A stretch of DNA of 64,000 nt, taken from positions 68,127 to 132,126 of the forward strand of contig CAVOLF010000009.1 of assembly GCA_963696805.1 (NCBI GenBank), read 5' to 3'. Positions 4,380 through 58,762 of the stretch are shown one piece after another. The notes beneath the pieces are model-generated. The model worked only from the letters and a program-made list of their open reading frames with translations. It ran no database searches and was not told the origin of the DNA. The position numbers and the translations under genes are program-made. The stretch comes from an uncultured Rikenellaceae bacterium. Lineage in GTDB: Bacteria; Bacteroidota; Bacteroidia; Bacteroidales; VadinHA17. How positions within the stretch are numbered: position 1 is the first letter of the stretch; the number at the start of each line of letters is the position of its first letter.

Positions 4380-5714
4380 TTAGTTATTGACTCCAATATA
4401 AGTTCTCACATTACGGAACCCGACAAATGACTTTGTTGAGTCCTGGTATTCATAATCCCTTGTTGAATTCTGCATAAAAAGTGCAATATCCTTCCATGAG
4501 CCTCCTCTTATGACTTTGCGCTTGAGCACCGGGGGATCCTCGGGGCGTGCGTTGTATTCATAGTCGGGGTTCAGGTCATGGGTGAAGACATAAGCTGACG
4601 GATGGTAGGCGCATGAAGTCCATTCGGAGACGTTACCTGCCATGTCAAACAGTCCGTATTCATTCGGTTCGAACGAAGCAACCTTAATGGTATAGACGGC
4701 TCCGTCATCGATGTAGTTACCGCGCAGAGGCTTGAAGTTGGCCAGGAAGCAGCCCTGGTAGTTGCGTGTGTAGGGGCCTCCCCAGGGGTACATCGACAGA
4801 TCGAGTCCGCCACGTGCAGCATATTCCCATTCAGTCTCCAGCGGGAGACGGTAGTTGTGAACATCGGCAATACCCTGGGTACGCAGATGTTCATTCATGA
4901 AGTTGGTACGCCAGACGCTGAATGCGCGTGCCTGTACCCATGAAACACCCACAACGGGATAGTCATCATAGCCCGGGTGCCAGAAATAGAGTGTCGCCCA
5001 CGGCTCATTGAATGAATAGGTGAAGTCCCTGATCCATGCGAGGGTGTCAGGATAAATATTGACATTATGGTGCATGATGAACGATGAGCGGTCTACCACG
5101 TCGGTGGTGTTTCCGTCAAGGTCAGTGACCTGGCCTTCGTACTTCTGGTCCTTGTAGTTGTACCTTGCCTTGGCTGCCTGCTTGTAGTCAACCCAGAAAT
5201 ATGAGTAGTTGAGAAGCCGTGTGTCCCACTGCTTGTTGGCGTTGAATCTCTCTTCAGGGGGATAGTAGAGGGTCTCGAGGACTGCCAGGACATTCTCATC
5301 CCTGATAGTCTATCTCCTCGTCCCAGTTCAGAACATTGGGCTCAAGGACATTGCCCTCCTCATCGGTCCTGAAGAATTCGTAGCCCTCAATGCCTTCCTC
5401 ACCCAGTTTGGTCCTGAGGAGAGAGTCACGCACCCAGTATGTAAACTGACGGTATTTATTATTGGTGATTTCTGTCTGGTCCATCCAGAATGCTTCCACA
5501 GTCACTGTCTTGGAGAGACTGTTCATGGCACGCAACGGATCCTGATCACTCGGCCCCATCTGGTAGGAACCGGCAGGGATGAATGCCATTTCAAACGGTT
5601 CCGGCTCATAGAATTTTTTCCTTCCCTGGACGCCTGTCAGCTCGCCGATTCATAGGAGGAACAGCCTCCCAGGACAAAGATTAATGTAAGAGCTAAAAGG
5701 ATTACCTTTTTCAT
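4380..5714 (-). pseudogene. gldK: GldK (PorK) lipoprotein, FGE-sulfatase/SUMF1 fold, interrupted by two compensating frameshifts (real or assembly error)
   Basis: The N-terminal frame gives MKKVILLALTLIFVLGGCSSYES (lipobox) and then stops. The conserved middle (GELTGVQGRKKFYEPEPFEMAFIPAGSYQMGP...FWMDQTEITNNKYRQF) is in another frame. The C-terminal part (DENVLAVLETLYY...RLPLETEWEYAARGG...GGSWKD) returns to the first frame. Shift sites lie near 5640-5650 and 5296-5309. Confidence 0.85.
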
Positions 5715-22691: not shown

Positions 22692-22816
22692 AGTCTCCAG
22701 TCCCCGGTCTTCAGTCTCCAGTCCTCATGCCAAGAGCCTGATAATCAATTCTTAATTCTTAAATCTTAATTCCGATTGCTGACTGCCGATTGCTGACTGC
22801 CGACTGATGACTATCG
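22692..22816. repeat. phase-locked heptanucleotide arrays filling a convergent-gene spacer
   Basis: agtc cores occur at 22692+7k (6 units). Then 10 consecutive units run in one register from 22747: aattctt aattctt aaatctt aattccg attgctg actgccg attgctg actgccg actgatg actatcg. The left (c)agtc half and right gactg half are reverse-complementary. Confidence 0.8.
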
Positions 22817-30112: not shown

Positions 30113-30250
30113 GATTCAGTCGGCAGTCTTCAGTCGGCAATCGGCAGTCGAAATCAGTCAGCAGTTACCAATCGACAATAGGCAGTCAATACGTAGGACT
30201 GAGGACTGAGGACTGAGGACTGAGGACTGAGGACTGAGGACTGCCGACTT
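30113..30250. repeat. largest inverted pair of phase-locked heptanucleotide arrays, (cagtcNN)n then (ggactga)6
   Basis: cagt/caat cores at 30117, 30124, 30131, 30138 and 30145. After a 3-nt phase slip they continue at 30155, 30162, 30169, 30176 and 30183. gactg cores sit at 30197+7k for k=0..7, including six perfect ggactga units. The array fills the spacer from the SPOR-gene stop to the metG stop. Confidence 0.9.
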
Positions 30251-35496: not shown

Positions 35497-35563
35497 CCTG
35501 CCGGCTGTTGCCATAGCTCATTGTTGATGACCAACATTGGCAGGTATATTGCATCAGGAATTT

Positions 35564-35592
35564 GCGATTATGACTGCCGACTGGTGACTGCC
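35564..35592. repeat. one-armed heptanucleotide array (cgattat gactgcc gactggt gactgcc)
   Basis: gactg cores at 35572, 35579 and 35586, preceded in phase by a cgatt unit. I found no complementary cagtc arm nearby. Confidence 0.55.
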
Positions 35593-35624
35593 AACGGCCT
35601 ACCCTACAATCTGGCTGCTTCGCT

Positions 35625-35647
35625 CAAATGACCCACCGGGTCATTTG
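35625..35647. terminator. 10-bp perfect hairpin in a convergent spacer (weak terminator candidate)
   Basis: caaatgaccc (35625-35634) pairs with gggtcatttg (35638-35647) around a 3-nt loop. Only a short T run (tt) follows. Confidence 0.35.
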
Positions 35648-35666
35648 TTAACGCTCGCCCCTCTAT

Positions 35667-35687
35667 TGCCTACTGCCTGTTGCCTCT
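35667..35687. repeat. three-unit heptanucleotide array tgcctac tgcctgt tgcctct abutting the stop of the downstream minus-strand gene
   Basis: tgcct cores at 35667, 35674 and 35681. A similar ctactgcc tacttac word occurs at 43066-43079. Confidence 0.5.
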
Positions 35688-35690
35688 TAT

Positions 35691-41849: not shown

Positions 41850-42950
41850 TCATTTCATCTCCACTCTCTTTGTCGGTGCCATCTCCGCGTTGCGTTTCTC
41901 AACCTGGCTGACGACGGTGTCGGCAAGGGTCATGAAGGCAAGCCCTGTCTCGCTGTCATTCAGTGCCGCCGGTGTTCCGGTATCACCACCGTCGCATATG
42001 CTTTCTACGAGGGGTATCTGACCCAGCAGTCCGGTGCCGCTCTCGGCGGCGAGCCTGCTGCCGCCCTCCTTGCCGAAGATGTAGTACCTGCGGCCGGGCA
42101 GCTCGGGAGCCACGAAGTACGACATGTTCTCAACAAGACCGAGCACCGGCACATTAATGGCTTCGCTGCGGAACATGGCTATCCCCTTGCGGGCGTCGGC
42201 CAGCGCCACCTCCTGGGGAGTAGTAACCACTATTGCTCCTGTGACAGGCACCTCCTGAACCAGTGTGAGATGAATGTCGCTTGTCCCGGGAGGCAGGTCG
42301 AAGATGAGGTAATCAAGCTCACCCCAGTCGCCCTGCGTGATGAGCTGCTTGAGAAAACTGCTTGCCATCGGGCCACGCCAGATGACCGCCTCGCTGCCTT
42401 TGACGAAGAAACCGATGGAAAGAATCTTCACACCGTACCTTGTCATCGGGATGATGAGGTCATTGCCGTTTTCATTGCGCACGTCGGGACGATAGGTCTC
42501 CGCATGGAACATTCTCGGCACCGAGGGACCGAAGATGTCCGCGTCAAGTAGCCCGGTGGCATAACCCTTGCGTGCCAGCGCCACCGCCAGGTTAACGGCA
42601 ACGGTCGATTTGCCTACCCCGCCTTTGCCCGATGATACGGCGATGATGTTCTTCACGCCTGGCAGGATATCCCTCCTGGGAGGGGCCATCTTTTCAACCA
42701 CGATCCTTGGCCTGACCTCAATCGAAGAGATTACCGCATCAGGCCCCAGCACCTCCTTTACTGCCCTGACACAGTTGCTCTTGATCGATGTGAGGAAGGG
42801 GTCATTAGACTTTTCCGGCACAAGCACAATTGCTATCCCTTCCGCCGTTTCGGAAATATCTCCCACCATCCCGAGGGTGACGATGTCACTGCCCTTTTCA
42901 GGATGGGAAACCATCTTCAGGGCCTTTAGAATGTCTTCTTTTTTATACAT
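41850..42950 (-). CDS. Mrp/NBP35 (ApbC) family iron-sulfur cluster carrier ATPase
   Basis: The N-terminal DUF59-like segment reads ILKALKMVSHPEKGSDIVTLGMV. It has the deviant Walker A SGKGGVGKST and a DLPPGTSD motif. Confidence 0.9.
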   Translation of the reverse strand: MYKKEDILKALKMVSHPEKGSDIVTLGMVGDISETAEGIAIVLVPEKSNDPFLTSIKSNCVRAVKEVLGPDAVISSIEVRPRIVVEKMAPPRRDILPGVKNIIAVSSGKGGVGKSTVAVNLAVALARKGYATGLLDADIFGPSVPRMFHAETYRPDVRNENGNDLIIPMTRYGVKILSIGFFVKGSEAVIWRGPMASSFLKQLITQGDWGELDYLIFDLPPGTSDIHLTLVQEVPVTGAIVVTTPQEVALADARKGIAMFRSEAINVPVLGLVENMSYFVAPELPGRRYYIFGKEGGSRLAAESGTGLLGQIPLVESICDGGDTGTPAALNDSETGLAFMTLADTVVSQVEKRNAEMAPTKRVEMK

Positions 42951-42988
42951 GGTTATGAATTATGATTGTTGTCTTCACTACTACCTCG

Positions 42989-43079
42989 CGGATTTGCGAT
43001 TTGCGATTTGCGATTTGCGAATCTTGATTAAATCGACAATCGAAAATCTGAAATCGAAAATTTCTCTACTGCCTACTTA
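42989..43079. repeat. phase-locked heptanucleotide array with a different core: (gcgattt)4 then (aatcgNN)4
   Basis: 13 consecutive units in one register: cggattt gcgattt gcgattt gcgattt gcgaatc ttgatta aatcgac aatcgaa aatctga aatcgaa aatttct ctactgc ctactta. The cgatt and aatcg cores are reverse complements. Confidence 0.9.
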
Positions 43080-43102
43080 CTTTGATTAACACATCAAGCT
43101 AA

Positions 43103-43459
43103 TCAGAGTTCAACTGAGGGATCCCAGAACTTTTCCCTGAACTCAAGGACCACATCTTCCCTCACCGTGAAGTCCTCGTTTTCAAGCAGTTGCTGCATGG
43201 TTGACGAGTTGCCGAAGTGATTTTTGCCGGTGAGCATCCCGTTGCGGTTTACAACGCGGTGGGCAGGGATGAATCCGGGCAGCGAGTGCGAGGAGTTGAG
43301 TGCCCAGCCTACCATCCTGGCTGATTGTGCGGTGCCCAGGTACCTGGCAATGGCCCCGTATGACGTTATCCGTCCGTGGGGTATTTGCCGGGTGACATCG
43401 TAAACGCGGCTGAAGAAGCCTTCGTTGTCAGCCGAGGGGAGAGATGATCTCTTTTTCAT
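43103..43459 (-). CDS. alkyltransferase-like (ATL) protein: MGMT DNA-binding domain lacking the acceptor cysteine
   Basis: Contains IPHGRITSYGAIA, and the motif reads IPAHRVVN where active O6-alkylguanine transferases have PCHRV. Confidence 0.75.
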   Translation of the reverse strand: MKKRSSLPSADNEGFFSRVYDVTRQIPHGRITSYGAIARYLGTAQSARMVGWALNSSHSLPGFIPAHRVVNRNGMLTGKNHFGNSSTMQQLLENEDFTVREDVVLEFREKFWDPSVEL

Positions 43460-58673: not shown

Positions 58674-58762
58674 TGTCCTCAGTCTTCAGTTTTCAGTCCT
58701 CAGTCTTCAGTAAATCATCATTTTACCGACTGTTGACTGCCGACTGCCGACTGCCGACTGAT
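58674..58762. repeat. inverted phase-locked heptanucleotide arrays inside the kinase / response-regulator spacer
   Basis: cagt(c) cores at 58680, 58687, 58694, 58701 and 58708. The loop is taaatcatcattttacc. gactg cores sit at 58728, 58735, 58742, 58749 and 58756. That gives five potential 5-bp helices in register. Confidence 0.9.

Follow-up and report, generated by a model that had tools for sequence, protein, structure and literature searches.

What does it mean that two runs of 7-nt units with mutually complementary cores lie head to head in the spacer between two bacterial genes: that a hairpin has been assembled there under selection, or that a ready-made element has arrived? The question is raised by a 91-base stretch at positions 42989 to 43079 of a 64,000-nucleotide window from an uncultured Rikenellaceae bacterium. 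By the window we mean the whole stretch of DNA that was analysed (G000:C9:68127-132126), and its source genome, G000, is an assembly of 3.57 Mb in 13 contigs that is 92.8% complete. Thirteen heptamer units follow one another there in a single 7-nt register (cggattt, gcgattt three times, gcgaatc, ttgatta, aatcgac, aatcgaa, aatctga, aatcgaa, aatttct, ctactgc and ctactta), exactly as an earlier note made from the letters alone had listed them. The stretch is real and non-random. That note saw in the locus what an element selected for structure or generated by a mechanism would show. Selection for structure finds no support here: we find one copy of a dispersed cassette, with an irregular right arm that is preserved to the letter, non-pairing positions included, and comparison with relatives indicates that the architecture did not arise independently at this locus. 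Our preferred reading, to which we give a probability of roughly 0.6, is that a copy of a small, dispersed, non-coding cassette was acquired recently at the locus and forms part of a lineage-wide system of mosaic heptanucleotide arrays in the spacers behind genes.

A BLAST search of the right half of the element against G000 returned about 20 places that match it at 93–100% identity across some 50 nt, irregular units (GAC, GAA, TGA and GAA) included. The conserved core of this half is a 31-mer, AATCGACAATCGAAAATCTGAAATCGAAAAT, which occurs 13 times in G000 with up to three mismatches. In other genomes of the same genus it was found, at the same threshold, 31 times in G005 (24 times with up to two mismatches) and 13 times in G017, and with up to two mismatches 21 times in G053 and 50 times in G046, where 29 copies are exact and several lie at contig ends. 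It was absent, at up to three mismatches, from most other sampled genomes of the genus and from 16 genomes of other families of the order, and a reversed-pattern control gave 0 matches in 41 genomes. In a collection of 185,579 species the exact 31-mer was found in 78 stretches, carried by about 15 metagenome-assembled genomes (MAGs) labelled Bacteroidales, uncultured Rikenellaceae or Rikenella sp., and by one Candidatus Falkowbacteria contig. Taken over 71 copies, the consensus reads [(G/T)AAAGTCY]n-TGAAG-(GATTTGC)0-6-GAATTTTGATTA-AATCGACAATCGAAAATCTGAAATCGAAAAT-TCCTCT-(CTAYTGC)n, from which the window copy differs by two substitutions and by the lack of the AAAGTC module. Judged by these alignments, the cassette copies form a family related by descent. 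The cassette is also a dispersed, extragenic and imperfect palindrome, as are the repetitive extragenic palindromic (REP) sequences and the REP doublets forming hairpins (REPINs).

The cassette and its surroundings in the window comprise the following parts:

41850 to 42950, minus strand: gene for an Mrp/NUBPL-type P-loop ATPase (mrp), the downstream gene (PF10609, ParA/NUBPL, E = 3e-91).
42951 to 43102: intergenic spacer of 152 nt between mrp and the gene for an alkyltransferase-like protein (ATL).
42978 to 42989: left junction, CTACTACCT, a remnant of a resident CTAYTGC array, followed by CGC (from the alignment with the relative G055).
42991 to 43020: left arm, (GATTTGC) x4.3 and perfect; the variable-length module of the cassette, with 0–6 perfect units in other copies (Tandem Repeats Finder, TRF; 71 copies).
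43017 to 43030: centre, two degenerate heptamers, GCGAATC and TTGATTA, that keep the 7-nt phase.
43031 to 43061: right arm, the conserved 31-nt core given above.
43062 to 43079: cassette tail, TTCT followed by CTACTGC and CTACTTA, corresponding to the canonical TCCTCT-(CTAYTGC)n end and merging with the resident array beside the ATL stop (71-copy consensus; G055 alignment).
43082 to 43097: small hairpin, TTGATTAACACATCAA, directly after the ATL stop.
43103 to 43459, minus strand: ATL gene, with the DNA-binding domain of MGMT, the upstream gene (PF01035, E = 1.4e-23).

The two genes form a co-directional minus-strand pair, with the element 3′ of the ATL stop and 5′ of the mrp start; the domain matches bear out the placement between an ATL stop and an Mrp ATPase gene that had been read from the letters. 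At the locus, TRF reports GATTTGC x4.3 at 100% (42991–43020) and AAATCGA x4.6 at 76% (43030–43061), which places both arms among heptanucleotide simple sequence repeats (SSRs), also known as short tandemly repeated repetitive (STRR) sequences, with at least three head-to-tail 7-nt copies. A repeat search gave inverted arms of 29–31 nt that are 77–79% complementary. They meet at a palindromic centre, GATT-A-AATC, at 43026–43034; the centre of the window copy is 1 nt off its family consensus, GAATTTTGATTA. The hairpin TTGATTAACACATCAA is common to the closest relatives, and is therefore part of the old spacer and not of the cassette.

As mrp and ATL are syntenic in the whole genus, the site can be compared between species. 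In the closest relative, G055, whose flanks are 93–94% identical, the spacer measures 78 nt, holds (CTAYTGC)3 and is without the cassette, both arms being absent. It reads CTACTGCCTATTGCCAATTGCC where the window has the left junction, and more widely ...TTCACTACTGCCTATTGCCAATTGCCTTCTTTG..., against an order in the window of CTACTACCT, CGC plus the cassette, and then CTACTGCCTACTTAC. The spacer has thus grown by a net 74 nt (79 nt by coordinates), beside or within the resident CTAYTGC array, and the aligned spacers point firmly to a recent gain of the cassette at this site. Two contigs of G055, the end of C57 and the start of C17, overlap and break inside the mrp-ATL spacer exactly at the cassette site, which may reflect a strain-level presence/absence polymorphism.

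Across the genus the same spacer is a hot spot of repeat turnover. It is 51–57 nt long and array-free in four species, carries (ATTTGCG)2-18 adjoining the mrp start in others, and holds unrelated elements resembling MITEs (miniature inverted-repeat transposable elements) in further species. At one orthologous site the copies compared carry GCAAATC three, five and three times. Copy number thus shifts by whole 7-nt units between relatives, here as in the 2–18 units beside mrp and as is typical of heptanucleotide SSRs, and from such alignments growth of the arrays in 7-nt steps is well established. As a separate observation, a second subgroup of the genus has the ATL-mrp spacer filled by a different palindromic element, built on GATTTACGAACAAGGAA and TTCCTTGTTCGTAAATC, and the 51-nt "empty" spacers carry one half of that element (TTCCTTGTTCGTAAATC).

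Turnover of this kind also exchanges one word family for another. We examined 38 spacers of G000 that are orthologues of spacers with a CGATT cassette in a relative. Eighteen hold a CAGTC-GACTG pair, five a single CAGTC or GACTG array, nine the same CGATT/AATCG cassette and two other heptamer arrays, while four have no heptamer array. The CAGTC-GACTG pair is found in 19 of 271 convergent gaps at baseline, as against 18 of the 38 orthologous spacers (p about 1e-11). Outer arrays beside the stop codons are often common to species while the inner cassette differs. On the evidence of these orthologous sequences, the CGATT/AATCG and CAGTC/GACTG families replace each other at the same spacers.

The locus is not a one-off within its genome. 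TRF, at a score of at least 50, finds 83 arrays of period 7 in G000 against 2, 4, 5 and 2 for periods 6, 8, 9 and 10, and in a stringent lag-k scan lag 7 yields 77 arrays, whereas each other lag from 4 to 12 yields 0–3. Intergenic positions account for 68 of these 77, and the excess of period 7 is thus genome-wide and mainly intergenic, as in heptanucleotide SSRs elsewhere. The main words reported by TRF are CAGTCNN/GACTGNN, CTACTGC, CTATTGC, GCGATTT (25 arrays), AATCGAA (17 arrays) and AATTCTT. The closing word of the ctactgc type, which the earlier note had singled out, is real and genome-wide (31 CTACTGC-type and 25 CTATTGC-type TRF arrays), and the cgatt unit it saw beside gactg units is present at 35563.

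Convergent genes flank 59 of the 135 intergenic heptamer loci in G000 and divergent genes 11, against 203 convergent and 301 divergent among the 1234 gaps of at least 80 nt that served as background (p = 9e-14 and 2e-6). In three relatives, 19 of 30 cassette copies are between convergent genes. The cassette sits preferentially between gene 3′ ends, and at the loci examined heptamer arrays begin at or within stop codons. The window itself holds four more heptamer loci, at 849–867, 22692–22812, 30117–30243 and 58675–58760. Three of them are CAGTC-to-GACTG pairs, which start at or inside stop codons (TAGTCCTCAGTCC, TGAAGTCTCC). At 58675, the orthologous spacer of G046 carries a CGATT/AATCG cassette in place of the window's array.

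The two word families follow common rules. That the locus has the same architecture as the CAGTC/GACTG arrays with a different core was already proposed from the letters, and the match extends beyond what that reader could see, to cores, arm order, mirrored register and swapped orthologous spacers. G000 has 46 cases of a CAGTC run with a GACTG run in the next 90 nt, and 0 of the opposite order; CGATT precedes AATCG 15 times, again with 0 in reverse, and 573 kb from relatives gives 47 against 0. A preference of single arrays for the sense strand was considered as the cause of this fixed order and rejected, as unpaired arrays in tandem contexts divide 10:11; 12 of 32 array pairs, moreover, lie between co-directional genes. 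Cores in neighbouring arrays agree as well: CAGTC is paired with GACTG in 31 cases and CGATT with AATCG in 12, and a single pair is crossed (Fisher p = 6e-10). In both families a unit consists of a complementary 5-nt core and a 2-nt spacer.

At CAGTC/GACTG loci, 0 of 98 facing spacer dinucleotides are complementary (18% expected). A complementary spacer pair of any kind is present in one of 46 loci, where 5000 permutations lead one to expect 18.4 ± 3.0. The arms draw on the same five unit types, and never does one type occur in both arms of a locus. In the window cassette the spacers are likewise non-complementary (CGATT+TG against AATCG+AC/AA), a single reading to which no family statistic is attached. 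The check suggested in the earlier note, which compares arm complementarity with shuffled pairings, is not significant when whole units are scored (12 against 13.3 ± 3.2 pairs at six or more of 7 positions). It becomes decisive only when cores and spacers are scored apart: cores are always matched (31 and 12 against one), and spacers are almost never complementary. Measured from the final CAGTC to the opening GACTG, the distance equals 1 mod 7 at 23 of 57 loci and 2 mod 7 at a further 11 (chi-square p = 1e-6), and the centre of the window copy, TGATT-A-AATCG, has the same 1-nt mirrored geometry.

Heptamer words of these families are found well outside the genus. The pattern (CAGTCNN)3CAGTC occurs in 21 of 201 sampled Bacteroidales genomes from scattered families, with the same spacer types. 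Five of 151 sampled Patescibacteria have AATCGNN arrays, one of them (G320, a genome of the candidate phyla radiation, CPR) with 143 matches. The exact 31-mer of the Candidatus Falkowbacteria MAG is at 5605–5688 of VMTK01000028.1, a CPR contig of 41% GC, where it lies directly upstream of a tRNA-Asn gene and is preceded by a left arm of its own (GATTTAA/GATTGCA). Elsewhere in this 1.3-Mb genome, five places hold another seven matches to AATCGNNAATCGNNAATCG, and one further locus that was read, (GGATTTC)n-AAAATA-(AATCGTC/AATCGAA)n, has the same left-to-right design. Horizontal transfer to CPR is not claimed on the strength of the exact 31-mer, since the Falkowbacteria genome has AATCGNN arrays of its own; with so small a heptamer vocabulary the identity may be coincidence. 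The reversed word that served as a control, (CTGACNN)3CTGAC, is abundant in its own right in a small number of other Bacteroidales genomes (G165, G031, G134 and G151, with 56 matches in G165, which is of the same family as G000), and different lineages therefore amplify different heptamer words.

An invariant arm order, a letter-perfect core and an empty site in the nearest relative together argue for descent from a founder palindrome and recent spread, and not for repeated assembly of hairpins under structural selection. Under this explanation a founder palindrome of the form core-N-core′ would be ancestral to each family, and its arms would lengthen and homogenise separately by replication slippage. 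Copies would spread, or replace one another, by recombination at shared flanking heptamer arrays or by insertion into them, a process that could be driven by host functions or some further factor. Only interrupted palindromes, with five paired and two unpaired positions per unit, would persist. Long perfect palindromes are unstable in bacterial DNA, which would be the best explanation for the mismatched spacers. Here, in the intercistronic spacer of ATL and mrp, the cassette is probably carried as neutral baggage and would add to the transcript at most a weak imperfect hairpin.

Several observations weigh against this interpretation. Slippage alone leaves the period of 7 in every word family unexplained, and the instability invoked for perfect palindromes is general knowledge, not a result of this comparison. 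The left junction is ambiguous, and no clear target-site duplication or terminal inverted repeat marks the ends. Other comparisons of filled with unfilled sites show replacement of the cassette and no simple insertion. Some array is present across species in 34 of the 38 spacers, which could reflect function instead of tolerance. All the genomes compared are MAGs, in which assembly errors at repeats are possible. Nor was a mobilising enzyme found: the Y1_Tnp/RAYT transposase domain (REP-associated tyrosine transposase; PF01797) has no match in G000, G046, G053 and G055, which hold 13–50 copies. XisH, of which an association with heptamers has been hinted at (MacGregor, 2015; PMC4679880), was found in 0 of 201 Bacteroidales genomes, a weak negative in that control genomes were equally silent.

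Among possible vehicles, mobilisation by RAYT or IS200 was rejected on the same absence of PF01797; within the genus this domain is matched in 19 of 41 genomes and is unrelated to cassette copy number. Neither the 31-mer nor (GATTTGC)4 was found in IMG/VR contigs, which were searched for signs of carriage by phages. The likeness to a MITE is ambiguous, for the whole element is an imperfect palindrome with variable array ends, the flanks CTACTACCT and CTACTGCCT may be mere neighbouring array units, and a parent insertion sequence was sought through PF01797 alone.

Other explanations account for part of the same evidence. It is unlikely, if far from negligible, that the cassettes are functional RNA elements at 3′ ends, imperfect hairpins that act as bidirectional terminators, insulators or blocks to 3′-exonucleases in the manner of REP sequences and bacterial interspersed mosaic elements (BIMEs). 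The 2x2 mismatches would then avert cutting as perfect double-stranded RNA, and word families would be interchangeable since only the fold matters. Such a role would suit the strong surplus of loci between convergent genes and their scarcity between divergent ones, the starts at or inside stop codons, and the continued occupation of spacers across species though their content is swapped. It would also suit the lower share of canonical hairpin-plus-T-run terminators in convergent gaps with arrays (24% against 41%, p = 0.02), a weak difference confounded by gap length, and the orientation of the cassette to transcription, which is one way in 9 of 10 tandem contexts in G000 but 4:4 in relatives, so that a bias is unproven. 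The fold itself points the other way. A selected RNA or single-stranded DNA hairpin would be expected to show compensatory changes, of which there is one cell over 23 pairs and 102 distinct copies, and the outer helices are broken in 50–70% of these copies because the number of perfect units in the left arm ranges from 0 to 6. Folding z-scores are unexceptional (−0.29 for the gene-sense RNA, which folds no better than shuffles, −1.88 for the other strand and −1.77 for DNA). The stem is A/U-rich with internal loops, 42800–43250 contains 0 terminator-like sites, and both the G+C-rich stem-loop and the U tract of an intrinsic terminator are lacking; searches of Rfam 15 found nothing, either in the window at the gathering threshold or in 42850–43200 at E <= 1. 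Thermodynamics, furthermore, does not predict a fixed arm order, and the window copy precedes a start codon in a co-directional pair whose closest counterpart is without it. A sigma-70 promoter at the site was considered separately and rejected, the one weak promoter-like match being no better than shuffles.

Protein binding offers a different account of the same geometry. The omega repressor binds heptads on plasmid pSM19035 and accepts direct and head-to-head, but not tail-to-tail, units. The present arrays are arranged likewise: their 7-bp units adjoin one another, keep a conserved core and stand in direct and head-to-head order but not in tail-to-tail order, a likeness of architecture only. 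The earlier note held that a sequence-specific binding site was excluded, which does not follow, as a conserved 5-nt core and a free 2-nt spacer also fit protein-bound heptad iterons. We nevertheless regard it as improbable that the arrays are double-stranded DNA sites for small proteins polymerising on contiguous 7-bp units, with one paralogue per word family and a possible role in nucleoid organisation or in supercoil management between converging genes. The strict 7-bp period over six or more word families, the exact mirrored or in-phase register around a 1–2-nt centre (which a hairpin loop does not need) and the conservation of the 31-mer at non-pairing positions would all suit such binding. 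Yet a cognate DNA-binding protein would be needed, several specificities would have to replace one another at one spacer, anti-complementary spacers are not what it predicts, and the number of units is very variable; that the same words occur in phyla as distant as the CPR is also better accounted for by some physical or mutational cause than by a protein confined to one lineage. That the locus is an ordinary microsatellite, arisen in place by slippage and inverted through the coincidence of two neighbouring arrays, is hardly credible. Arrays do change by 7-nt steps and single unpaired arrays exist, but the right arm is a specific 31-mer common to dozens of non-orthologous loci in several species, the closest relative has neither arm here, and arm families are always matched and ordered. 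A more speculative and rather doubtful proposal is that heptad cassettes are substrates of a putative machinery that reads architecture (the 5+2 heptad, the head-to-head arms and the odd centre with mismatched spacers) and not sequence, and that installs or exchanges cassettes at slots behind genes by a logic like that of integron attC/IntI or of REPIN/RAYT. If true, it would explain the shared geometry, the mutual replacement at orthologous spacers and the same words in Bacteroidota and Patescibacteria.

The locus belongs to a known, unexplained class of bacterial heptamer repeats and is not a unique regulatory site. Heptameric SSRs of Xanthomonas (GGGAATC) and Nostoc (GGGGAYT) are over-represented and intergenic, and in Xanthomonas 70–75 pairs of arrays are inverted, lying on opposite strands and invariably convergent (Rehm et al., 2015; PMC4692102). 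As summarised in the part of that paper that cites a 2007 survey and Mrazek and Huang, heptanucleotide SSRs are generally over-represented in prokaryotes; cyanobacterial STRR heptamers (Calothrix) are among the cases cited there. Like those repeats, the present ones over-represent period 7, are intergenic, have array lengths that are unconserved between related species, and keep a fixed head-to-head order. They differ in that their words, not being G-rich, lack quadruplex potential, that several word families are joined in a set modular order, that in one family a non-repetitive 31-nt core is dispersed as a unit, and that 44% of loci lie between convergent genes, a far higher share than the 16% of Xanthomonas. 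TAACTGA and mixed heptamer direct repeats have been described in Beggiatoaceae, Cyanobacteria and five Bacteroidetes, with 7-nt indels between strains, repeat-free relatives and contigs broken at repeats (MacGregor, 2015; PMC4679880). The arrays in our genomes are similarly patchy across distant phyla, mix heptamers in one spacer, have shorter repeat-free counterparts in relatives and end contigs, and TTAACTGA is found within 9 of 55 centres. The Beggiatoa sets are mostly just upstream of start codons in forward orientation, whereas ours lie mainly behind stop codons as inverted pairs.

BIME and REP sequences are short imperfect extragenic palindromes with mosaic combinations of motifs, concentrated at gene 3′ ends. 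With them, and with REPINs (Bertels and Rainey, 2011; PMC3116915), as known from enterobacteria and Pseudomonas, the cassettes share the imperfect extragenic palindrome, the combination of few motifs, the preference for gene 3′ ends and the occupation of the same spacers in sister species by species-specific variants. They differ from REP and REPIN in their tandem 7-nt units of variable number and in the absence of RAYT (Y1 transposase) from copy-rich genomes. The small dispersed repeats (SDRs) of Nostoc punctiforme, reportedly described by Elhai and colleagues in Genome Research in 2008, are said to be 21–27 nt long, to be embedded in heptameric tandem repeats and to have been proposed to move through RNA. 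Very small elements inside heptamer arrays are a feature in common; the cassette itself differs from an SDR in being 60–130 nt long and made of heptamers, and our data are silent on an RNA intermediate.

Elements of this nested kind were seen repeatedly. A GC-rich element of about 55 nt, TCCCGA...CGGGATTGATCCTG...CAGGATCAAA, lies within GATTTGC arrays at several unrelated loci and in several species, including the mrp-ATL spacers of G054, G052 and G041, and looks like a second small mobile element that targets the GATTTGC array. A GC hairpin of about 21 nt, ACTGTGTCCGCCCACCGGCGG, is likewise found inside GATTTGC arrays, at C12:8500 and C12:145300 of G000. A dispersed element of about 85 nt, CCCCTGCAATCTGGCTGCTTCGCT..ATGACCCACCGGGTCATTT..AACGCTCGCCCCTCTA, adjoins CTAYTGC arrays at 35590–35690 of the window, in the mrp-ATL spacers of G012 and G048 and at several other loci, and at C12:169980 of G000 it is inserted into the 31-mer core itself.

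For annotation, the message is that such spacers are repeat cassettes that break assemblies, and that they should not be taken as locus-specific regulatory sites. In many bacteria no other long microsatellites are as over-represented as heptanucleotide repeats, for which neither a cause nor a function is known. The arrays described here supply clean rules that any explanation must meet: a period of 7 only, complementary 5-nt cores with non-complementary 2-nt spacers, one arm order, a mirrored register, and conserved slots in which the words are swapped. If these rules come from selection against perfect palindromes together with slippage, the arrays would be a tidy natural experiment on palindrome stability. 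If they come instead from a dedicated protein or from an RNA function, they would represent a new layer of 3′-end genome organisation in Bacteroidales.

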